Shown here: positions 41,481 through 57,167 of the stretch, piece after piece
Numbering within the stretch: the stretch's first letter is position 1
How the letters are laid out: each line of letters begins with the position of its first letter
Assembly (NCBI RefSeq): GCF_055900595.2
Contig: NZ_CM148325.1
DNA: 64,000 bases
Direction: 5' to 3' (one strand)
Program-made: the position numbers and the translations under genes
The notes under the pieces: generated by a model
What the model saw: only the letters and a program-made list of their open reading frames with translations
Databases searched by the model: none
Told to the model about the DNA's origin: nothing

Positions 41481-42317
41481 ATGGCGCACGACGAACAATG
41501 GCTTACCCCGCGGCTGCAAACGGCGGCAACGCTGTGTAACCAGACGCCCGCCGCGTCGGAATCTCCGCTGTGGCTGGGGGTGGATCTGGGCACCTGCGAT
41601 GTGGTGTCGATGGTTGTCGACGGCGACGGTCAGCCGGTGGCGGTATGCCTCGACTGGGCCGATGTGGTCCGCGACGGCATCGTCTGGGATTTCTTCGGTG
41701 CTGTCACCATTGTTCGTCGCCATCTCGATACCCTTGAGCAGCAATTTGGTCGCCGTTTTAGCCATGCGGCGACCTCATTTCCTCCTGGTACGGACCCGCG
41801 TATTTCCATCAACGTGCTGGAGTCTGCCGGGCTGGAAGTGAGCCATGTGCTGGATGAGCCAACCGCAGTCGCGGATCTACTGCAACTGGATAACGCAGGC
41901 GTAGTGGATATTGGCGGCGGCACTACCGGAATTGCCATCGTGAAAAAGGGCAAGGTGACTTATTCAGCGGATGAAGCGACCGGCGGACATCACATTTCTC
42001 TGACTCTCGCCGGAAATCGCCGTATTTCGCTGGGAGAGGCAGAGCAGTACAAGCGCGGTCACGGTGACGAGATTTGGCCTGCGGTGAAGCCGGTGTACGA
42101 AAAAATGGCGGACATTGTTGCCCGACATATTGAAGGGCAGGGCATTACTGATTTATGGCTGGCGGGCGGCTCCTGTATGCAACCGGGCGTGGCGGAACTG
42201 TTTTGCAAACAATTCCCGGCGTTACAGGTGCATCTACCGCAGCACAGTTTGTTTATGACCCCGCTGGCGATCGCCAGTAGCGGGCGAGAGAAAGCGGAGG
42301 GGATCTATGCAAAATGA
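41481..42317 (+). CDS. eutJ: Ethanolamine utilization chaperone-like protein (actin/Hsp70 fold)
   Basis: 278 aa with DxG and GGGT ATPase motifs. Confidence 0.92.
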   Translation: MAHDEQWLTPRLQTAATLCNQTPAASESPLWLGVDLGTCDVVSMVVDGDGQPVAVCLDWADVVRDGIVWDFFGAVTIVRRHLDTLEQQFGRRFSHAATSFPPGTDPRISINVLESAGLEVSHVLDEPTAVADLLQLDNAGVVDIGGGTTGIAIVKKGKVTYSADEATGGHHISLTLAGNRRISLGEAEQYKRGHGDEIWPAVKPVYEKMADIVARHIEGQGITDLWLAGGSCMQPGVAELFCKQFPALQVHLPQHSLFMTPLAIASSGREKAEGIYAK

Positions 42318-43494
42318 ATTGCAGACCGCGCTCTTTCAGGCGTTCGATACCCTGAATCTGCAACGGGTAAAAACATTTAGCGTTCCACCGGTGACGCTTT
42401 GCGGCCCGGGCGCGGTGAGCAGTTGCGGACAGCAAGCACAAACGCGTGGGCTGAAACATCTGTTCGTGATGGCAGACAGCTTTTTGCATCAGGCGGGGAT
42501 GACCGCCGGGCTGACGCGCAGTCTGGCCGTTAAAGGCATCGCCATGACGCTCTGGCCATGTCCGGTGGGCGAACCGTGCATCACTGACGTGTGTGCCGCC
42601 GTGGCGCAACTGCGCGAATCAGGCTGTGACGGGGTGATCGCGTTTGGCGGTGGCTCGGTGCTGGATGCGGCAAAAGCCGTTGCGTTGCTGGTGACGAACC
42701 CCGACAGCACGCTGGCAGAAATGTCAGAAACCAGCGTTCTGCAACCGCGTCTGCCGCTGATTGCCATTCCAACTACCGCCGGAACCGGCTCTGAAACCAC
42801 CAATGTAACGGTGATTATCGACGCGGTGAGCGGGCGCAAGCAGGTGTTAGCACATGCCTCGTTGATGCCGGATGTGGCGATTCTCGATGCCGCGCTGACC
42901 GAAGGTGTGCCGTCGCATGTCACGGCAATGACCGGTATCGACGCGTTAACTCATGCCATTGAAGCGTACAGCGCGCTGAACGCTACACCGTTTACCGACA
43001 GTCTGGCGATTGGTGCCATTGCGATGATTGGCAAATCACTGCCGAAAGCAGTGGGCTACGGTCACGACCTTGCCGCGCGCGAGAGTATGTTGCTGGCTTC
43101 ATGCATGGCGGGAATGGCATTTTCCAGTGCCGGACTTGGGTTATGTCACGCGATGGCGCATCAGCCGGGGGCGGCGCTGCATATTCCGCACGGACTGGCG
43201 AACGCCATGCTGCTGCCCACGGTGATGGAGTTTAACCGGATGGTCTGTCGCGAACGCTTTAGTCAGATTGGTCGGGCGCTGCGAACTAAAAAATCCGACG
43301 ATCGTGATGCTATTAACGCGGTAAGTGAGCTGATTGCGGAAGTCGGGATTGGTAAACGACTGGGCGATGTTGGTGCGGCATCTGCGCATTACGGCGCATG
43401 GGCGCAGGCCGCGCTGGAAGATATTTGTCTGCGCAGCAACCCGCGTACCGCCAGCCTGGAGCAGATTGTCGGCTTGTACGCAGCGGCGCAATAA
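42307..43494 (+). CDS. eutG: Iron-containing alcohol dehydrogenase of the eut operon
   Basis: 395-aa Fe-ADH family protein; overlaps the eutJ end by 11 nt. Confidence 0.93.
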   Translation: MQNELQTALFQAFDTLNLQRVKTFSVPPVTLCGPGAVSSCGQQAQTRGLKHLFVMADSFLHQAGMTAGLTRSLAVKGIAMTLWPCPVGEPCITDVCAAVAQLRESGCDGVIAFGGGSVLDAAKAVALLVTNPDSTLAEMSETSVLQPRLPLIAIPTTAGTGSETTNVTVIIDAVSGRKQVLAHASLMPDVAILDAALTEGVPSHVTAMTGIDALTHAIEAYSALNATPFTDSLAIGAIAMIGKSLPKAVGYGHDLAARESMLLASCMAGMAFSSAGLGLCHAMAHQPGAALHIPHGLANAMLLPTVMEFNRMVCRERFSQIGRALRTKKSDDRDAINAVSELIAEVGIGKRLGDVGAASAHYGAWAQAALEDICLRSNPRTASLEQIVGLYAAAQ

Positions 43495-43496
43495 AT

Positions 43497-43580
<84 letters not shown>

Positions 43581-43610
43581 ATAAATAACAACTAACAGGG
43601 AGTAAAGGCG

Positions 43611-44837
43611 ATGGGAATTAACGAAATCATCATGTACATCATGATGTTCTTTATGCTGATAGCTGCCGTGGACAGGATCCTGTCGCAGTTCGGCGGTTCT
43701 GCTCGTTTCCTCGGTAAGTTCGGTAAAAGTATCGAAGGATCCGGCGGCCAGTTCGAAGAAGGCTTTATGGCAATGGGCGCACTGGGCCTGGCGATGGTCG
43801 GTATGACCGCACTGGCACCAGTTCTGGCCCACGTACTTGGGCCGGTGATTATCCCGGTTTACGAAATGCTCGGTGCTAACCCATCGATGTTCGCCGGAAC
43901 ACTGCTGGCGTGCGACATGGGCGGCTTCTTCCTCGCGAAAGAGCTGGCGGGCGGCGATGTGGCAGCGTGGCTATACTCTGGGTTAATTCTCGGATCGATG
44001 ATGGGGCCAACGATTGTGTTTTCCATTCCGGTGGCGCTCGGCATTATCGAACCTTCTGACCGTCGTTATCTGGCGCTCGGCGTGCTGGCGGGCATTGTGA
44101 CCATTCCAATTGGCTGTATCGCTGGAGGTCTGGTAGCTATGTATTCCGGTGTGCAGATCAACGGGCAGCCGGTGGAATTCACCTTTGCGCTTATCCTGAT
44201 GAATATGATCCCGGTACTTATCGTCGCGGTACTGGTGGCGCTGGGGCTGAAATTCATCCCGGAAAAAATGATCAACGGCTTCCAGATCTTCGCCAAGTTC
44301 CTCGTTGCATTGATCACCCTCGGTCTTGCTGCCGCGGTAGTGAAATTCCTCCTTGGCTGGGAACTGATCCCCGGTCTTGATCCGATCTTTATGGCCCCTG
44401 GCGATAAACCCGGTGAAGTGATGCGCGCCATTGAAGTTATCGGTTCTATCTCCTGCGTGCTGTTAGGGGCGTATCCGATGGTGCTGCTGCTGACCCGCTG
44501 GTTTGAAAAACCGCTGATGAGCGTCGGTAAAGTGCTGAATATGAACAACATCGCGGCAGCCGGCATGGTGGCAACGCTTGCCAACAACATCCCGATGTTT
44601 GGCATGATGAAGCAGATGGATACCCGCGGCAAAGTCATCAACTGTGCCTTCGCCGTTTCCGCTGCTTTCGCCCTGGGTGACCACTTAGGCTTCGCCGCTG
44701 CCAACATGAACGCCATGATCTTCCCGATGATTGTCGGCAAGTTGATCGGCGGCGTAACGGCGATTGGCGTGGCGATGATGCTGGTGCCAAAAGAAGACGC
44801 GACCGCGGCTAAAACCGAAGCGGAGGCACAATCGTGA
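43611..44837 (+). CDS. eutH: Ethanolamine permease / transporter
   Basis: 408-aa polytopic membrane protein. Confidence 0.93.
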   Translation: MGINEIIMYIMMFFMLIAAVDRILSQFGGSARFLGKFGKSIEGSGGQFEEGFMAMGALGLAMVGMTALAPVLAHVLGPVIIPVYEMLGANPSMFAGTLLACDMGGFFLAKELAGGDVAAWLYSGLILGSMMGPTIVFSIPVALGIIEPSDRRYLALGVLAGIVTIPIGCIAGGLVAMYSGVQINGQPVEFTFALILMNMIPVLIVAVLVALGLKFIPEKMINGFQIFAKFLVALITLGLAAAVVKFLLGWELIPGLDPIFMAPGDKPGEVMRAIEVIGSISCVLLGAYPMVLLLTRWFEKPLMSVGKVLNMNNIAAAGMVATLANNIPMFGMMKQMDTRGKVINCAFAVSAAFALGDHLGFAAANMNAMIFPMIVGKLIGGVTAIGVAMMLVPKEDATAAKTEAEAQS

Positions 44838-46237
44838 ACACTCGCCAGCTACTGAGCGTCGGTATCGATATCGGCACTACCACCACCCAGGTGATCTTCT
44901 CCCACCTGGAGCTGGTTAACCGTGCGGCGGTGTCGCAGGTGCCGCGCTACGAATTCATCAAACGCGAAATTAGCTGGCAAAGCCCGGTGTTCTTTACCCC
45001 TGTCGATAAACTGGGCGGTTTAAAAGAAGCGGAACTGAAAACCTTAATCCTCGAGCAATATCAGGCTGCGGGCATTGCGCCGGAAAGCGTTGATTCTGGT
45101 GCCATCATCATCACCGGTGAAAGCGCGAAAACCCGCAATGCTCGCCCGGCGGTGATGACGCTCTCCCAGTCGCTTGGCGATTTTGTCGTCGCCAGCGCCG
45201 GGCCGCATCTCGAATCCGTGATCGCCGGTCACGGTGCCGGGGCGCAAACCCTTTCTGAACAACGGCTGTGTCGGGTACTGAATATCGATATTGGCGGTGG
45301 CACCGCGAACTACGCTTTGTTCGATGCCGGAAAAATCAGCGGCACCGCTTGCCTCAACGTCGGCGGTCGCCTGCTGGAAACCGACAGCCAGGGGCGCGTG
45401 GTTTACGCTCATAAACCGGGGCAGATGATAGTGGATGAGTGCTTCGGTGCAGGCACTGACGCCCGTTCGCTGACTGGCGCGCAGCTGGTGCAGGTTACCC
45501 GGCGGATGGCGGAACTGATTGTCGAAGTGATTGACGGAACGCTCTCGCCGCTCGCGCAGGCATTGATGCAAACCGGTTTGCTGCCCGCAGGTGTTACGCC
45601 AGAAATCATTACGCTTTCTGGCGGCGTGGGCGAATGTTATCGCCACCAGCCCGCTGACCCGTTCTGTTTTGCCGATATTGGCCCGCTTCTGGCAACGGCG
45701 CTGCATGACCATCCGCGCCTGCGTGAGATGAACGTGCAGTTTCCGGCGCAAACCGTACGCGCCACGGTGATTGGCGCGGGCGCACATACCCTTTCGCTCT
45801 CTGGCAGCACAATCTGGCTGGAGGGGGTACAACTGCCGCTGCGCAATTTGCCGGTGGCGATCCCAATTGATGAAACGGATCTGGTGAGTGCCTGGCAACA
45901 AGCGCTAATTCAGCTGGATCTTTGCCCCAAAACTGACGCGTACGTGCTGGCGCTTCCCGCCTCGCTGCCTGTGCGTTACGCCGCGGTACTGACGGTCATC
46001 AACGCGCTGGTCGATTTCGTCGCGCGTTTTCCGAATCCGCATCCCCTGCTGGTGGTGGCCGGGCAGGATTTTGGTAAAGCTCTGGGCATGTTGTTGCGCC
46101 CACAGCTACAACAACTCCCGTTGGCAGTCATTGACGAAGTGATTGTCCGCGCGGGGGACTATATCGACATTGGTACGCCTCTTTTTGGCGGATCGGTTGT
46201 GCCGGTGACGGTGAAATCACTCGCATTTCCTTCCTGA
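44834..46237 (+). CDS. eutA: Ethanolamine ammonia-lyase reactivating factor
   Basis: 467 aa; 4-nt overlap with eutH. Confidence 0.93.
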   Translation: MNTRQLLSVGIDIGTTTTQVIFSHLELVNRAAVSQVPRYEFIKREISWQSPVFFTPVDKLGGLKEAELKTLILEQYQAAGIAPESVDSGAIIITGESAKTRNARPAVMTLSQSLGDFVVASAGPHLESVIAGHGAGAQTLSEQRLCRVLNIDIGGGTANYALFDAGKISGTACLNVGGRLLETDSQGRVVYAHKPGQMIVDECFGAGTDARSLTGAQLVQVTRRMAELIVEVIDGTLSPLAQALMQTGLLPAGVTPEIITLSGGVGECYRHQPADPFCFADIGPLLATALHDHPRLREMNVQFPAQTVRATVIGAGAHTLSLSGSTIWLEGVQLPLRNLPVAIPIDETDLVSAWQQALIQLDLCPKTDAYVLALPASLPVRYAAVLTVINALVDFVARFPNPHPLLVVAGQDFGKALGMLLRPQLQQLPLAVIDEVIVRAGDYIDIGTPLFGGSVVPVTVKSLAFPS

Positions 46238-46248
46238 GGGAACGACTT

Positions 46249-47610
46249 ATGAAACTAAAGACCACATTGTTCGGCAATGTATATCAGTTTAAGGATGTAA
46301 AAGAGGTGCTGGCTAAAGCCAACGAACTGCGTTCGGGGGATGTGCTGGCGGGCGTTGCAGCGGCAAGTTCACAGGAGCGCGTGGCGGCAAAGCAGGTGTT
46401 GTCGGAAATGACCGTAGCGGACATCCGCAATAATCCGGTGATTGCCTATGAAGATGACTGCGTGACGCGGCTGATTCAGGACGACGTTAACGAAACGGCC
46501 TACAACCAGATTAAAAACTGGAGCATCAGCGAACTGCGTGAGTATGTGCTGAGTGATGAAACCAGCGTGGACGACATTGCCTTTACCCGCAAAGGGCTGA
46601 CCTCGGAAGTGGTCGCGGCGGTAGCGAAGATTTGCTCCAACGCGGACCTGATCTACGGCGCGAAGAAAATGCCGATTATCAAAAAGGCCAATACTACCAT
46701 CGGTATTCCGGGCACCTTTAGCGCCCGTTTGCAGCCGAACGATACCCGTGACGACGTGCAGAGTATCGCCGCGCAAATCTACGAAGGGCTTTCCTTCGGG
46801 GTAGGCGATGCGGTGATCGGCGTTAACCCGGTGACTGACGACGTGGAAAACTTAAGCCGCGTGCTGGATACCATCTATGGCGTGATCGACAAATTCAACA
46901 TTCCGACCCAGGGCTGCGTGCTGGCGCACGTTACTACCCAGATTGAAGCGATCCGTCGCGGCGCGCCGGGCGGGCTGATTTTCCAGAGCATCTGCGGCAG
47001 CGAAAAAGGGCTGAAAGAATTTGGCGTGGAGCTGGCGATGCTCGATGAAGCACGCGCAGTGGGCGCAGAGTTTAACCGTATCGCCGGGGAAAACTGCCTC
47101 TACTTCGAAACCGGGCAAGGTTCTGCGCTATCGGCGGGCGCTAACTTCGGCGCAGATCAGGTAACGATGGAAGCGCGTAACTACGGGCTGGCACGTCATT
47201 ACGATCCGTTTATCGTCAACACCGTAGTGGGCTTTATTGGGCCAGAGTATCTCTACAACGACCGGCAGATTATCCGTGCGGGCTTAGAAGATCACTTTAT
47301 GGGCAAACTGAGCGGCATTTCTATGGGCTGTGACTGCTGCTACACCAACCACGCTGACGCTGACCAGAACCTCAACGAAAACCTGATGATCCTGCTCGCC
47401 ACCGCAGGCTGCAACTACATCATGGGGATGCCGCTGGGTGATGACATCATGCTCAACTACCAGACCACCGCATTCCACGATACCGCCACTGTGCGTCAGT
47501 TACTCAACCTGCGCCCGTCACCGGAGTTTGAACGCTGGCTGGAAAGCATGGGCATTATGGCAAACGGTCGCCTGACCAAACGGGCGGGCGATCCGTCACT
47601 GTTCTTCTGA
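46249..47610 (+). CDS. eutB: Ethanolamine ammonia-lyase large (heavy) subunit
   Basis: 453 aa MKLKTTLFGNVYQFKDVKEVLAKANELRSGD...; directly follows eutA after an 11-nt spacer. Confidence 0.95.
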   Translation: MKLKTTLFGNVYQFKDVKEVLAKANELRSGDVLAGVAAASSQERVAAKQVLSEMTVADIRNNPVIAYEDDCVTRLIQDDVNETAYNQIKNWSISELREYVLSDETSVDDIAFTRKGLTSEVVAAVAKICSNADLIYGAKKMPIIKKANTTIGIPGTFSARLQPNDTRDDVQSIAAQIYEGLSFGVGDAVIGVNPVTDDVENLSRVLDTIYGVIDKFNIPTQGCVLAHVTTQIEAIRRGAPGGLIFQSICGSEKGLKEFGVELAMLDEARAVGAEFNRIAGENCLYFETGQGSALSAGANFGADQVTMEARNYGLARHYDPFIVNTVVGFIGPEYLYNDRQIIRAGLEDHFMGKLSGISMGCDCCYTNHADADQNLNENLMILLATAGCNYIMGMPLGDDIMLNYQTTAFHDTATVRQLLNLRPSPEFERWLESMGIMANGRLTKRAGDPSLFF

Positions 47611-47630
47611 TGACGCGGAGATAACACATC

Positions 47631-48518
47631 ATGGATCAAAAACAGATTGAAGAAATTGTACGCAGCGTGATGGCGTCAATGGGACAAGCGGCCCCCGCGC
47701 CGTCAGAAGCAAAATGCGCCACTACCACCTGTGCAGCACCGATGACCTCGGAAAGCTGCGCGCTGGATTTAGGTTCCGCAGAAGCAAAAGCGTGGATTGG
47801 CGTTGAAAACCCACATCGCGCAGACGTATTAACTGAACTGCGCCGCAGCACCGTGGCTCGCGTCTGTACCGGTCGTGCCGGTCCGCGTCCGCGTACCCAG
47901 GCGTTGCTGCGTTTCCTGGCCGATCACTCTCGTTCGAAAGACACCGTACTGAAAGAAGTGCCGGAAGAGTGGGTGAAAGCGCAGGGCTTGCTGGAGGTCC
48001 GCTCTGAAATTAGCGACAAAAATCTCTATCTGACTCGCCCGGATATGGGCCGCCGCTTGTGTGCAGAGGCTGTTGAAGCGCTGAAAGCGCAGTGTGTTGC
48101 CAATCCGGACGTACAGGTCGTTATTTCTGATGGCCTGTCAACTGATGCGATCACCGTGAACTACGAAGAGATCCTGCCACCGCTGATGGCGGGCCTGAAA
48201 CAGGCCGGGTTGAAAGTCGGCACACCGTTCTTTGTGCGTTACGGTCGCGTGAAGATTGAAGATCAGATTGGCGAACTTCTTGGCGCGAAAGTGGTGATCC
48301 TGCTGGTGGGGGAACGCCCAGGATTAGGGCAGTCAGAAAGCCTCTCCTGCTACGCCGTTTACTCGCCGCGTATGGCAACCACCGTTGAGGCCGATCGCAC
48401 CTGTATCTCTAACATTCACCAGGGCGGCACGCCGCCGGTTGAAGCCGCAGCCGTCATTGTGGATTTGGCGAAACGTATGCTGGAGCAGAAAGCATCCGGC
48501 ATCAACATGACCCGATAA
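47631..48518 (+). CDS. eutC: Ethanolamine ammonia-lyase small (light) subunit
   Basis: 295 aa. Confidence 0.94.
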
Positions 48519-48527
48519 GGAGGCATC

Positions 48528-49187
48528 ATGCCAGCTTTAGATTTGATTCGACCGTCGGTAACCGCCATGCGGGTGATTGCCTCTGTCAACGCCGAATTTG
48601 CGCGTGAACTGAAATTGCCGCCGCATATTCGTAGCCTCGGGCTGATTTCTGCTGATTCCGATGACGTCACCTACATTGCGGCTGACGAAGCGACCAAGCA
48701 GGCGATGGTTGAAGTCGTGTATGGTCGCTCGCTGTATGCGGGAGCTGCACACGGGCCGTCACCGACTGCCGGTGAGGTGCTGATTATGCTTGGTGGGCCA
48801 AACCCGGCGGAAGTGCGTGCTGGTCTGGATGCGATGGTTGCGCATATTGAAAATGGCGCTGCTTTCCAGTGGGCTAATGATGCAGAAAACACAGCCTTCC
48901 TGGCGCATGTCGTTTCGCGTACCGGCTCTTATCTCTCATCAACCGCCGGGATCACGCTTGGCGATCCGCTGGCGTATCTGGTGGCACCGCCGCTGGAAGC
49001 GACCTACGGCATTGATGCAGCGTTGAAATCTGCCGACGTGCAGCTGGTGACCTATGTCCCGCCACCGTCTGAAACCAACTACTCGGCAGCATTTTTAACC
49101 GGTAGCCAGGCCGCGTGTAAAGCAGCCTGTAACGCCTTTACCGATGCAGTGCTGGAAATCGCGCGTAATCCAATCCAGCGTGCGTAA
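48528..49187 (+). CDS. eutL: Ethanolamine microcompartment shell protein (tandem BMC domains)
   Basis: 219 aa. Confidence 0.93.
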
Positions 49188-49745: not shown

Positions 49746-50798
49746 ATGAAAAAGACCCGTACAGCTAATTTGCACCATCTTTATCATGAACCCTTACCCG
49801 AAAACCTGAAGCTAACGCCGAAGGTCGAAGTGGATAATGTTCATCAACGGCAAACAACGGATGTCTATGAACATGCTTTGACGATTACCGCCTGGCAGCA
49901 GATTTACGATCAGCTGCATCCGGGCAAATTTCATGGTGAATTTACGGAAATTCTGCTCGATGATATTCAGGTTTTCCGTGAATACACGGGGCTGGCGCTG
50001 CGTCAGTCGTGCCTGGTCTGGCCGAATTCGTTCTGGTTTGGCATTCCGGCGACGCGCGGTGAGCAGGGATTTATCGGTTCGCAATGTCTGGGAAGCGCAG
50101 AAATAGCGACGCGCCCTGGTGGAACCGAGTTTGAATTAAGTACGCCGGACGATTACACGATCCTTGGCGTGGTGCTTTCTGAAGATGTCATCACCCGGCA
50201 GGCTAACTTTTTGCATAACCCGGAAAGGGTGCTGCATATGTTACGTAACCAGTCGGCGCTGGAAGTGAAAGAGCAGCATAAAGCCGCGCTGTGGGGCTTT
50301 GTCCAACAGGCTCTGGCGACATTTTGCGAGAACCCGGAAAATCTCCATCAGCCTGCAGTGCGAAAAGTGCTGGGGGATAATTTGCTAATGGCGATGGGGG
50401 CGATGCTGGAAGAAGCGCAGCCAATGGTGACGGTGGAAAGCATCAGTCATCAGAGTTACCGTCGGTTGCTTTCCCGCGCCCGTGAATATGTGCTGGAAAA
50501 CATGTCCGAACCGGTGACGGTGCTGGACTTGTGTAATCAACTGCACGTCAGTCGCCGCACCTTGCAAAACGCATTTCACGCTATTTTGGGCATTGGCCCG
50601 AATGCGTGGCTGAAACGCATTCGCCTGAACGCCGTGCGCCGTGAACTGATTAGCCCGTGGTCGCAAAGTATGACGGTAAAAGACGCCGCCATGCAGTGGG
50701 GATTCTGGCATCTTGGGCAGTTTGCCACGGATTATCAGCAATTGTTTGCAGAAAAGCCTTCACTGACGCTGCATCAGCGGATGCAGGAACTGGAGTGA
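49746..50798 (+). CDS. eutR: AraC-family transcriptional activator of the eut operon
   Basis: 350 aa with a C-terminal AraC-type HTH. Confidence 0.93.
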
Positions 50799-50874
50799 GG
50801 GTGAGGGCCGGATGAGGATGGTGTTTGATCCGGTCCATAGTGAAGTTACAAATTACGTTGAATTGCTATGTATT

Positions 50875-51192
50875 TTATTGCCCAACGGGATAGGCGATAA
50901 ACAAACCGACAATTGTCAAAATACACGCCAGCAGGAATACCAACATACAATTTACGCGCTTTCGCGAAATTTTAAATAAATAGCAAAATAGTGTTGTTAC
51001 CACGATCACTACCGGGATAGTCATAAAATTAATAACGATGAGTGCTATCAATCCAAAACTTGCTCCTCCACCGTGGGGAATAAAAATGTGTTCTTCAAAA
51101 TAAACTTCTATAGCAAATGCCAGCACACATCCCAGAAAACTCATATCCAGATGAGGGTGCCATTTACTTTCTTTATGTGATGTGTCTGACAT
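50875..51192 (-). CDS. Hypothetical small membrane protein (105 aa, about 3 predicted TM helices)
   Basis: ATG preceded by a GGGAG SD; hydrophobic segments FLGCVLAFAIEVYF, FGLIALIVINFMTIPVVIVVTTLFCYLF, CMLVFLLACILTIVGLFIAYPV; 40 nt downstream of and co-oriented with the 420-aa gene. Confidence 0.6.
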   Translation of the reverse strand: MSDTSHKESKWHPHLDMSFLGCVLAFAIEVYFEEHIFIPHGGGASFGLIALIVINFMTIPVVIVVTTLFCYLFKISRKRVNCMLVFLLACILTIVGLFIAYPVGQ

Positions 51193-51232
51193 TCTTAAAT
51201 GCTCCCGTGAGCAAACTGGCGCAAAATAATTT

Positions 51233-52495
51233 CTAAGATTGCTGATAAGACGTCGCTGTTGTCCGGCACTCCGGGCAGATAAACGCGTAAATTATCCCTT
51301 CGCCGTATTGTTCAATATCGGCATAATCCAGTTGCGCAAGAAACATCATTGTGTGGGAACATTGCGGACAGAGAGGATATTCCGCGTCCTGAATCCAGGT
51401 TGGATGCCCGCCAAGTTGCGAGAAAGAGACAGGTAAAAATGGGTCTGCGGCAAATAACGGTGACCTAAGGTTTCCCTGTCTCATGCTGTTTACAGGGAGT
51501 CGACGCCATTCCGATACATCATCCGGCAGCCAGGCAGGCGGGATATTTTTTGCAGACAAATGAGCGTTACCCTTTGAGTCCATGTAGCCGAAAATGGTGC
51601 TGTAGGCGGTGCAACATTCGCAAGTCACGACGCGAAAACTGCCGTTATCGCTAAGACCCGTTGCCTTCAGGTCAACGTCGAAAAGATTTGTTAGTGGCAA
51701 TGCGCAATTTGGACAGGTATCGTTGCGTTCATCAACAACACGCAAAGCTTCGCAAGACCCGGTGCTTTTCATCTCCAGATGAAAACATTGAGGAAAATAG
51801 AGATTACGCCTTTGATCTTCAGCGGTTAACTCCCAACCGGCCTCATGCGCATATTCTTCAGGCTCGATGTAAAGGGAGCTGCGCCACGGCGGTGGGCTAT
51901 TGCGCCAGTGGGCAAAACGTTCAACGACAACGTCATCCCCAATCCATGCCAGACATTGCAGAATACAATTTCTGTTTTCTGCATCATCCTCAACCCGTTC
52001 TAACAGCCTGTCGCGTACATCTGTGGGGGCGCGGTGGAAAGGCATATAAGAATCATTGTCCAAATCATCGTAAGAGATCCATTCTCTGAAATAGGCATTC
52101 AGATTCGCCTGGGTAAATGCCGCCAGACAAAGGCAAATCTCCTGAGCGAGCTTATATTCACCAGATGCAAAGCGTTCTGTGGCGTAATCAGCCATCAGCT
52201 GCGCTTGATCGGTGGTCAGTTGTTGATACAGGGCATCTGTGGGAACGGGGCAGGGAGTCCAGTCGATTAACGCATCGAATTTCCGCGGTTGGTGAATTAA
52301 TTTCAGCATGACAACCGGATCGCTTAACCCTGCAAACGCATTCACGATCTTTTTGTTTTTCTTGATATATTCGTCGTGCTCACGTTGCTGTTGGGCCTGC
52401 TCGCAGGGCATGCAGTATCCGTTAGTACGCGCTGCGGTTTCCGGAAGAATGGTTGATATACAAGCGGGGCTTTTACAGGGAATACGGTGAGTCAT
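51233..52495 (-). CDS. Hypothetical cysteine-rich protein (420 aa) with zinc-ribbon motifs and a DUF1963/YwqG-like C-terminal region
   Basis: ATG with an AAGGAG SD 8 nt upstream; N-terminal C-x4-C...C-x2-C (CKSPAC...CMPC), internal CPNC...CECC, and C-terminal GGHPTWIQDAEYPLCPQCSHTMMFLAQLDYADIEQYGEGIIYAFICPEC. Family assignment is from memory, not a search. Confidence 0.7.
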   Translation of the reverse strand: MTHRIPCKSPACISTILPETAARTNGYCMPCEQAQQQREHDEYIKKNKKIVNAFAGLSDPVVMLKLIHQPRKFDALIDWTPCPVPTDALYQQLTTDQAQLMADYATERFASGEYKLAQEICLCLAAFTQANLNAYFREWISYDDLDNDSYMPFHRAPTDVRDRLLERVEDDAENRNCILQCLAWIGDDVVVERFAHWRNSPPPWRSSLYIEPEEYAHEAGWELTAEDQRRNLYFPQCFHLEMKSTGSCEALRVVDERNDTCPNCALPLTNLFDVDLKATGLSDNGSFRVVTCECCTAYSTIFGYMDSKGNAHLSAKNIPPAWLPDDVSEWRRLPVNSMRQGNLRSPLFAADPFLPVSFSQLGGHPTWIQDAEYPLCPQCSHTMMFLAQLDYADIEQYGEGIIYAFICPECRTTATSYQQS

Positions 52496-52633
52496 AGAGG
52501 CGCTCCTTGCCTGAGGATATTAAGTCGAAAGAGATTATTATTAGATATTAGGGTGTCACTATGGCACACAAATTAAAACAGCATTAATTTTATGCCACCA
52601 ACCGAGGGTTATTTTTCTTTTATTTTCATGATA

Positions 52634-53536
<903 letters not shown>

Positions 53537-54406
53537 TTACCGCTTTCTCGAGTGTGCTTTCTGGTTGTCAAACCAGTGGAAATAACTGATCACGCCTTCG
53601 GCAATGGCTGTGGCGATTTTCTGGCGAAATGCCGCCGTGCCTAACAGCCGCTCTTCTTCCGGGTTGGTGATAAAAGAAGTTTCCACCAGCACCGAAGGAA
53701 CAGATGGCGATTTCAACACTACAAACGCGGCTTGTTCGGTATTGCGGCTGTGCAGCTTATGCACCGGCTTAATCTTCTTCAGAATATGTGAGCCGAGCGT
53801 CAGGCTGTTTTTAATAGTATCGGTTTGTACCAGATCAAACAGCACTTGTTGCAATAGGTGATCCTTGTCAGTCGCTTTTTTACCGGCAACTTCATCAGCG
53901 CGGTTTTCGCGTTCAGACAGGTATTTCGCCATTGCGCTACTTGCCCCACGGTTAGAGAGAGCAAATACCGAAGCACCGGCAGCTTTCGGGTTGGTAAAGC
54001 CATCGGCATGAATTGACATAAACAGATCTGCGCCATGTTTATGGGCGATTTCAACGCGATCGTAAAGTGGGATAAACGTATCGCCAGAACGCGTTAAACG
54101 CGCATCAATGCCATGATTACGCAAAATGGAACGGACGTTTTTGGCAATTGCCAGCACCACATGTTTTTCTTTCGAACCGTTGCGACCAATCGCCCCGGTA
54201 TCAATCCCGCCGTGGCCTGGATCGAGAACAACGACACGTTTGCCGCCGTTTTTTTTTGCTTTCGGCTTGCTGTGTCCGTTGCTGGTTTTTAAAGGTTCTT
54301 CTTTGGCGATGGCTTGCGACATTCCTGACAACGTCAGGGCAGCCAATCCGGCTTTCAGCACCTGGCGGCGCGAAGTGAGTGTTTTTAGTGGTTTAAAAGT
54401 GCTCAT
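53537..54406 (-). CDS. amiA: N-acetylmuramoyl-L-alanine amidase A
   Basis: 289 aa with a Tat signal (TSRRQVLKAGLAAL) and Amidase_3 domain. Confidence 0.94.
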   Translation of the reverse strand: MSTFKPLKTLTSRRQVLKAGLAALTLSGMSQAIAKEEPLKTSNGHSKPKAKKNGGKRVVVLDPGHGGIDTGAIGRNGSKEKHVVLAIAKNVRSILRNHGIDARLTRSGDTFIPLYDRVEIAHKHGADLFMSIHADGFTNPKAAGASVFALSNRGASSAMAKYLSERENRADEVAGKKATDKDHLLQQVLFDLVQTDTIKNSLTLGSHILKKIKPVHKLHSRNTEQAAFVVLKSPSVPSVLVETSFITNPEEERLLGTAAFRQKIATAIAEGVISYFHWFDNQKAHSRKR

Positions 54407-57130: not shown

Positions 57131-57167
57131 TTAAAGGCCAGCCAGTATCACAACTGACTGGCCTTTT
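57131..57167. terminator. Bidirectional rho-independent terminator between convergent yfeX and yfeW
   Basis: AAAGGCCAGCCAGT-loop-ACTGACTGGCCTTTTT hairpin with flanking A/T runs. Confidence 0.55.

Follow-up and report, generated by a model that had tools for sequence, protein, structure and literature searches.

A hemF-linked DUF1963/YpfK gene pair, very probably ancestral in enterobacteria and deleted from most Escherichia coli

The eutR-hemF junction of a 64,000-nucleotide stretch of contig NZ_CM148325.1 (NCBI RefSeq assembly GCF_055900595.2), here called the window, holds two genes that are missing from Escherichia coli K-12. One encodes a cysteine-rich protein of 420 amino acids (aa), and the other encodes YpfK, a 105-aa membrane protein. 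As to identity and evolutionary history, the pair is very probably (about 0.9) an ancestral enterobacterial two-gene unit downstream of amiA-hemF that was precisely deleted in most E. coli. An ancestral locus followed by a clean deletion is the simplest history. What resembles an accessory islet in E. coli would then in truth be a retained ancestral locus, and absence from K-12 together with a local AT dip is poor evidence for acquisition.

Distribution and history of the pair

In K-12, the stop codons of eutR and hemF lie 5 bp apart, which bears out the initial annotation's statement that these genes are neighbours there and that about 1.8 kb intervenes here. Of 5426 complete E. coli genomes, 5395 (99.4%) have the empty junction and 28 carry the 420-aa gene. 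This makes the segment accessory in the species, as that annotation had proposed, and the opposing case, in which the two genes are core genes found in most E. coli, does not hold.

Outside E. coli, the pair is a stable neighbour of hemF. The order amiA-hemF-[420 aa] is kept across six enterobacterial genera or lineages. The full series amiA-hemF-[420 aa]-[105 aa] is present in E. albertii, with eutR next in line; in E. fergusonii-like contigs (so named from their small protein), with maeB next; in Kluyvera georgiana; and in a lineage labelled unclassified Klebsiella. Superficieibacter and the metagenome-assembled genome (MAG) UBA3516 carry hemF-[420 aa] and lack the 105-aa gene. Salmonella has the swapped order hemF-[105 aa]-[420 aa]-eutR (loci L006, 137-1872, and L098), and the 90% cluster from that genus counts 1074 members. 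Salmonella YpfK starts merely 20 nucleotides (nt) after hemF, which suggests that it is co-transcribed with hemF in that genus.

Compared with E. albertii, the window shows divergence at synonymous sites (dS, Nei-Gojobori) of 0.62 for the 420-aa gene and 0.47 for the 105-aa gene, against 0.54 for hemF and 0.62 for amiA. The similarity of these values indicates that the pair diverged along with its flanks. The islet boundaries hold no relevant junction repeats, no tRNA gene, and no open reading frame (ORF) for mobility functions, and a search of 72,556 plasmids and 50,697 phage records returned no homologue of the 420-aa protein. K-12 has lost the segment cleanly, down to 5 bp. The horizontal acquisition suggested at first reading is not supported in view of hemF-linked synteny in sister species, concordant dS, the lack of repeats, tRNA, and mobility genes, and the lack of plasmid or phage copies.

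Base composition had been the basis of that suggestion, and it divides between the two genes. A dip in GC content to 0.37-0.42 is confined to the 105-aa gene (GC 0.38; third-codon-position GC, GC3, 0.36) and the spacers (GC 0.35-0.45), for which AT-richness stands as described. The 420-aa gene does not share it: its GC of 0.495 and GC3 of 0.50 are close to those of amiA (GC3 0.51), and GC3 of the flanking genes is 0.51-0.58. The AT-richness of the 105-aa gene is poor evidence for acquisition.

Both genes are under purifying but relaxed selection. The ratio of nonsynonymous to synonymous divergence (dN/dS) is 0.16-0.33 for the 420-aa gene and 0.18-0.30 for the 105-aa gene, compared with 0-0.10 for hemF and amiA. 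Conservation across genera together with these low ratios shows that both ORFs are real genes, and proteins identical to the 420-aa and 105-aa products are found on 441 and 758 public contigs, respectively. The 420-aa gene is dispensable nonetheless, because it has been lost from most E. coli, is broken in some E. fergusonii-like contigs, and is apparently interrupted in Salmonella Agona. In the E. fergusonii-like contigs concerned (L091, 6698-7960, and L094), a frameshift or stop splits the DUF1963 gene into ORFs of 128 and 289 aa beside an intact YpfK gene, and the entire eut operon is missing from the site, which reads hemF-pair-maeB. In Salmonella Agona, a 74.6-kb resistance island is inserted in a "DUF1963 domain-containing protein" gene beside the eut genes (PMC12054066), which is equated with the 420-aa gene by its position.

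The two proteins

The 420-aa protein belongs to a broad family. Relatives that span its full length (about 420 aa) occur in Enterobacteriaceae at 54-80% identity, in Chitinimonas, in planctomycete and verrucomicrobial MAGs, in Clostridia, and in many species of Paenibacillus, Lysinibacillus, and Sporosarcina at 36-42% identity. A word-indexed search returned 147 homologues, and when 1.84 billion cluster representatives (50% identity) were searched with a profile, 533 matched at E<=1e-30 and 2734 at E<=1e-3. In an alignment of 27 sequences (A1) with identity down to 38%, conservation extends over the full length and 33 residues are invariant. The protein contains 20 cysteines, in agreement with its first description as cysteine-rich, and 12 of these are conserved in homologues down to 38% identity. 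They form three four-cysteine clusters: C7/C12/C28/C31, C261/C264/C292/C295, and C376/C379/C407/C410. Of the first cluster, C31 never varies in A1, and conservation of C7, C12, and C28 is 90% or higher. The other two clusters, which place paired CxxC motifs in each beta repeat, are invariant except for C410 (at least 90%).

An AlphaFold2 model of the 420-aa protein (predicted local distance difference test score, pLDDT, 93.3; predicted template modelling score, pTM, 0.87) consists of a short N-terminal ribbon, helices to about residue 217, and two strand-rich repeats that reproduce the two-repeat all-beta fold of PDB 1PV5. The GGxP motif and conserved glutamine of the TYPP (TSR4/YwqG/PDCD2)/DUF1963 group are present: the sequence GGHPxWxQD occupies residues 362-370, and G362, G363, P365, Q369, and Q388 are invariant in the 27 sequences. 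Pfam DUF1963 matches residues 359-406 (48 residues; independent E-value 5.8e-5; model positions 1-51 of 216). By hhalign, the profile alignment with canonical YwqG/DUF1963 proteins spans 63 columns at 93.4% probability and E 2.4e-7, a partial but consistent match. A search of PDB sequences with the family profile returned nothing significant. The N-terminal cysteine cluster, although conserved, does not match Pfam zf-dskA_traR, and many relatives lack it or carry an extra helical repeat in its place. Longer forms of about 500 aa were considered as carriers of a toxin or immunity domain, and their extra region is a helical repeat instead.

It is well supported that the 420-aa product is a soluble cytoplasmic TYPP-fold protein composed of a four-cysteine cluster, a HEAT-like arm, and a beta domain. 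Three structural zinc sites are predicted from the cysteine clusters. No nuclease, nucleoside triphosphatase (NTPase), or other effector domain and no recognisable catalytic motif was detected in the protein, which is probably a non-enzymatic binder. Neither it nor the 105-aa protein matches any PADLOC family at E<=1, and NCBIfam models give sub-threshold noise only.

The TYPP superfamily was defined computationally by Burroughs and Aravind (2014; PMC4275035). Members of its "prokaryotic family two" have a helical domain N-terminal to the TYPP domain, and some also have a C4 zinc finger of DksA/TraR type. The authors proposed a protein-interaction or chaperone-like role and found nothing that ties the bacterial versions to ribosome biogenesis (PMC4275035). 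The architecture of the 420-aa protein, including its N-terminal alpha-helical domain, fits this description. That paper reports no hemF linkage, YpfK partner, or data on presence and absence in E. coli. Bacillus subtilis YwqG (PDB 1PV5; DUF1963, PF09234) shares the GGxP motif and conserved glutamine with the 420-aa protein at only 12% identity. Relative to YwqG, the 420-aa protein has about 217 extra N-terminal residues (the cysteine cluster and HEAT-like domain) and two CxxC...CxxC sites.

Eukaryotic PDCD2, PDCD2L, and Tsr4, which PMC4275035 places in the same domain superfamily, are chaperones of the ribosomal protein uS5, each a binder or escort and not an enzyme (PMC7736825). PDCD2 combines a TYPP domain with a zinc-binding MYND module, much as the 420-aa protein pairs its TYPP domain with a predicted zinc cluster. 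The likeness has limits, since PDCD2/Tsr4 and the 420-aa protein show no detectable direct sequence match, and the bacterial gene is dispensable and sporadic.

The 105-aa protein is assigned to YpfK (PF26378) indirectly, through precomputed hits on cluster representatives 92-98% identical to it and on orthologues in four loci (L005, L092, L095, and L100). It is a well-supported prediction that the product is an inner-membrane protein with three segments; hydropathy places these at about residues 17-38, 44-76, and 81-103, as the initial annotation had it. Alignment A4 defines two conserved motifs, E..F...IFIP.GGG.SFG and LACILTI.GLFIAYP. Beyond Escherichia, relatives occur only in Kluyvera, Salmonella, and the Klebsiella-labelled lineage, and none was found in Superficieibacter, in UBA3516, or outside Enterobacteriaceae. 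The two genes remain adjacent despite the swap of their order in Salmonella, which suggests from gene order that they are functionally coupled. No literature was found on the YpfK family or on STM2452/STM2453.

Much of this was already known: RefSeq already holds identical sequences for both proteins, each of which falls into an existing Pfam family, and the superfamily of the large protein was described in 2014. The new points are modest and consist of the conserved linkage to hemF, the partnership with YpfK, the loss from most E. coli, and the accretion of conflict-related cargo at the same spot.

Genomic company and candidate functions

The 28 E. coli carriers fall into four configurations. 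In one genome, E7-1N7, a TacA antitoxin and a GNAT acetyltransferase toxin lie between hemF and the 420-aa gene (L104, 8793-9585). In nine genomes, this position is occupied by a 223-aa hypothetical protein and a 1149-aa SNF2 helicase; this form was inspected in E2348/69 (L090, 27313-31430), a standard enteropathogenic E. coli (EPEC) laboratory strain that carries the 420-aa/105-aa pair, and in GF130 (L102, 8796-12913). The helicase matches ZorD, DpdE, and "SCO1167/SCO6262 family helicase" models, all below their curated cut-offs, and its likeness to ZorD and DpdE is restricted to the helicase core. The helicase and its 223-aa neighbour may constitute an uncatalogued two-gene defence candidate.

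Three further genomes lack the 105-aa gene and have in its place genes for a 221-aa hypothetical protein, a Tli3-family protein, and two Sel1/TPR proteins, as inspected in 2017-02-2CC (L002, 1647-3940) and WL297 (L103, 4646-6940). The Tli3-family gene is assigned as a type VI secretion system (T6SS) immunity gene by its Pfam Tli3 match (2.4e-15), and the 221-aa protein is soluble, contains cysteines, and lies outside known families. By gene content, this variant looks like an orphan immunity cluster. Across these forms, the eutR-hemF gap is a small hotspot that gathers conflict-related cargo in E. coli, and the 420-aa gene is the constant resident of this small variable spot.

Homologues in other bacteria also occupy variable contexts. 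Clustering of neighbour families across 82 loci revealed tight, co-directional, shuffled gene arrays in about 21 of 80 species-level loci, which belong to Paenibacillus (alvei-type species), Lysinibacillus, Sporosarcina, and Solibacillus. By Pfam, members of these arrays include two SMI1_KNR4/SUKH families, SuFu, ankyrin with DUF4274, canonical DUF1963, DUF6138, and DUF6881. Such arrays of SUKH, SuFu, and ankyrin genes, like the Tli3 and Sel1/TPR variants in E. coli, are in keeping with what Zhang et al. (2012; PMC3482391) called "heterogeneous polyimmunity loci" in polymorphic toxin systems. The window locus differs from polyimmunity loci in that it comprises two genes only, has no toxin, and is vertically inherited. 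The other recorded contexts are mixed and include HEAT-repeat, Macro, Peptidase_M78, and DUF4132 proteins; one homologue is fused to DUF2625, and no neighbour family is conserved across phyla.

In P. terrigena and P. aquistagni (L021, L023), two families, F33 and F43, head the SUKH/SuFu/ankyrin/DUF1963 arrays. From their sequences, F33 looks like an RNA ligase and F43 like a kinase plus HD phosphohydrolase, and together they may form an RNA-repair countermeasure to RNase toxins.

A second recurrent setting occurs in Paenibacillus. In about 14 closely related species, the homologue follows a gene with a tRNA_SAD domain (AlaX-like; family F3), lying about 100 nt downstream and co-oriented with it (L087, 6715-9305; L089, 5965-9281). 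In the P. amylolyticus group this AlaX-like neighbour encodes 392 aa. A further species, P. chitinolyticus, has in the corresponding place a 637-aa paralogue of threonyl-tRNA synthetase (ThrRS), so that two different zinc-dependent neighbours of tRNA-editing or synthetase type are on record. A link to zinc homeostasis or to aminoacyl-tRNA synthetase paralogues was considered and dropped, since these loci probably reflect shared synteny among close relatives. A link to the function of hemF or amiA was likewise set aside, its sole support being an enterobacterial synteny that is absent elsewhere.

The initial annotation had likened the pair to defence, abortive-infection, or toxin-related modules. 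Of these, a toxin-related flavour is plausible in view of the Bacillales SUKH/SuFu/ankyrin arrays and the variable eutR-hemF cargo, while defence and abortive infection have no direct support in the form of a PADLOC or NCBIfam match. The preferred mechanism, with a probability of roughly one in three, is that the 420-aa protein is an orphan immunity- or antidote-type binder with YpfK as its membrane partner, and it is preferred because of guilt by association in the Bacillales arrays and the E. coli Tli3 variants. Under this mechanism, the 420-aa protein would act purely as a protein binder, its helical arm and TYPP pocket clamping an extended peptide or small domain of its partner. The likeliest partner would be a toxin domain from inter-bacterial competition, and the protein would be kept on the chromosome as an orphan, without its cognate toxin. 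YpfK would serve as the membrane tether of the 420-aa protein or as a second, membrane-level protector. Transcripts would probably arise through read-through of amiA-hemF or start in the 138-nt AT-rich spacer.

Several observations weigh against this immunity-type binder. No toxin gene lies beside the pair in the window or in any enterobacterial locus examined, and no cognate toxin was found in the 6-kb flanks of the other loci. DUF1963/YwqG has 0 occurrences among the immunity families of PMC3482391, and no literature was found that links TYPP to immunity. Immunity cassettes less typically show stable vertical inheritance at a single housekeeping position or strong cross-phyla conservation of one motif and three cysteine sites, and both features fit a conserved endogenous client. 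The loci that follow a tRNA_SAD gene in about 14 Paenibacillus species, and a ThrRS paralogue in one, form a housekeeping-like setting. YpfK is missing in Superficieibacter, UBA3516, and all lineages outside Enterobacteriaceae, so the pair is not universal.

Several of these points suit a protein dedicated to one endogenous client as its chaperone or assembly factor. Its TYPP pocket would then hold a disordered stretch of some host protein, and YpfK would bring this activity to the membrane. By analogy with PDCD2/Tsr4, this account is nearly as likely as the immunity-type binder. It draws on fold and homology shared with the PDCD2/TSR4/YwqG superfamily and the chaperone-like role proposed in PMC4275035, on a motif set strongly conserved across phyla, on a fixed position after amiA-hemF throughout Enterobacteriaceae, on the tRNA_SAD/ThrRS-type neighbours in two Paenibacillus groups, and on the lack of plasmid or phage copies. 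The gene is nevertheless gone without replacement in 99.4% of E. coli and sporadic across bacteria, which implies that any client is non-essential or itself accessory. Moreover, no neighbour is conserved across phyla, dN/dS is 3-6 times that of the flanking housekeeping genes, and bacterial TYPP versions are without evidence for a role in ribosome biogenesis (PMC4275035). Loss in nearly all E. coli, together with the frameshift in L091 and the tolerated insertion in Salmonella Agona, could instead mark a functionless relict heading for deletion, its ORFs persisting through recent common ancestry. This account is very remote and largely refuted by dN/dS that stays far below 1 even where dS reaches or exceeds 0.6, by intact full-length orthologues across genera and phyla, and by the exact protein on hundreds of contigs.

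Two further accounts assign an active role to the small protein. Anti-phage defence or abortive infection, with a soluble sensor and a small membrane effector that disrupts the membrane upon infection, would suit the combination of one large soluble protein with one small membrane protein, the accessory status of the pair in E. coli, and the presence in some strains of an adjoining toxin-antitoxin pair or of the SNF2 helicase with its partial ZorD/DpdE likeness. It is improbable given that neither protein matches PADLOC or NCBIfam defence models, that neither phages nor plasmids carry the locus, that inheritance is vertical beside housekeeping genes, that most lineages have the large gene without YpfK, and that no nuclease, NTPase, or other effector domain was detected. 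Alternatively, the two genes could form a toxin-antidote pair in which YpfK damages membranes and is restrained by the 420-aa protein, as its hydrophobicity, the adjacency retained through the Salmonella order swap, and the toxin-antitoxin-like cargo in other strains would allow. The toxins of known type I toxin-antitoxin systems are short and hydrophobic. YpfK is unlike them in being long (105 aa) and well conserved (dN/dS 0.18-0.30), L091 keeps it intact beside a frameshifted partner, and the large gene persists without it in three E. coli genomes and several genera. An antidote that outlasts its toxin reverses the logic of addiction, though it is possible, and the toxin-antidote pair is on balance highly improbable.

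If the 420-aa protein is an immunity- or antidote-type binder, then a family that is widespread and uncharacterised, with over 500 clusters at the 50% identity level, would gain a function, and an origin would be suggested for the eukaryotic PDCD2/Tsr4 chaperones. A broader and unlikely form of this idea is that bacterial TYPP-fold proteins would be an unrecognised superfamily of toxin-immunity or antidote binders, with YpfK as an enterobacterial membrane partner, and that PDCD2/PDCD2L/Tsr4 would represent the third immunity-type binder, after SUKH and SuFu, to be recruited into core eukaryotic biology.

Layout and surroundings of the locus

The layout of the locus (Table 1) agrees with its first description as two co-oriented minus-strand genes 40 nt apart, each with a Shine-Dalgarno sequence. 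This is confirmed by the ORFs and by the two ribosome-binding sites, AAGGAG located 7 nt before the ATG of the 420-aa gene and GGGAG located 9 nt before the ATG of the 105-aa gene.

Table 1. Features of the eutR-hemF interval and adjoining genes (window positions)
Feature	Position	Strand	Remarks
420-aa gene	51233..52495	-	ORF; RefSeq WP_032303504.1, "DUF1963 domain-containing protein"
N-terminal C-x4-C-x15-C-x2-C cluster, residues 1-35	52391..52495	-	predicted zinc ribbon
All-alpha HEAT/ARM-like helical domain, residues 36-217	51845..52390	-	
TYPP/DUF1963-type two-repeat beta domain, residues 218-420	51236..51844	-	
105-aa membrane-protein gene (YpfK, PF26378)	50875..51192	-	ORF
Intergenic spacer, 40 nt	51193..51232	-	holds GGGAG ribosome-binding site of the 105-aa gene
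Spacer, 76 nt, eutR stop (50798) to 105-aa gene stop	50799..50874	.	sequence reading
Spacer, 138 nt, hemF stop to 420-aa gene	52496..52633	-	GC 0.35; AAGGAG ribosome-binding site
hemF	52634-53533	-	upstream neighbour, same strand as the pair
amiA	53537-54406	-	precedes hemF, same strand
eutR	49746..50798	+	convergent with the pair; last gene of the eut operon

The spacers themselves carry few signals. The 76-nt spacer contains a hairpin, CCGGAT(N14)ATCCGG, without a T-run, and folds no better than shuffled sequence (z about -1.5), as is also the case for the 138-nt spacer. Scans of the spacers for promoter and terminator consensus sequences gave no match, and neither did an Rfam scan of 50500-52900. 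The 76-nt spacer is kept but diverged in E2348/69 (85% identity), and the 138-nt spacer is 95.6% identical to that of strain 2017-02-2CC and to that of contig L092.

Synonymous diversity around the islet is unusually deep within E. coli. This applies to 49800-54000 (the 3' half of eutR, hemF, and amiA) and also to 46600-48900. For many E. coli pairs, hemF dS is 0.17-0.33, which is about half of the value against E. albertii. Identity to K-12 in sliding windows is 0.91-0.95 near the islet and 0.98-0.99 farther away, a pattern that is not particular to islet carriers. An introgressed block tied to the islet, with flanks 91-95% identical to K-12, was considered and rejected because hemF is highly polymorphic in E. 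coli generally; in this gene, K-12 and E2348/69 are separated by a dS of 0.17, and islet carriers differ from one another by 0.24-0.33.

Two further differences from K-12 (locus L004) lie elsewhere in the window. The genes eutG, eutH, eutA, eutB, and eutC are contiguous at 42307-48518, and in K-12 the CPZ-55 prophage (intZ, yffL-O) separates eutA from eutB; the eut operon of the window is thus without this prophage. In the intergenic region between yfeX and pbp4b, about 150 bp of the K-12 sequence (L004, 12735-12888) is missing at window positions of about 57135-57164.

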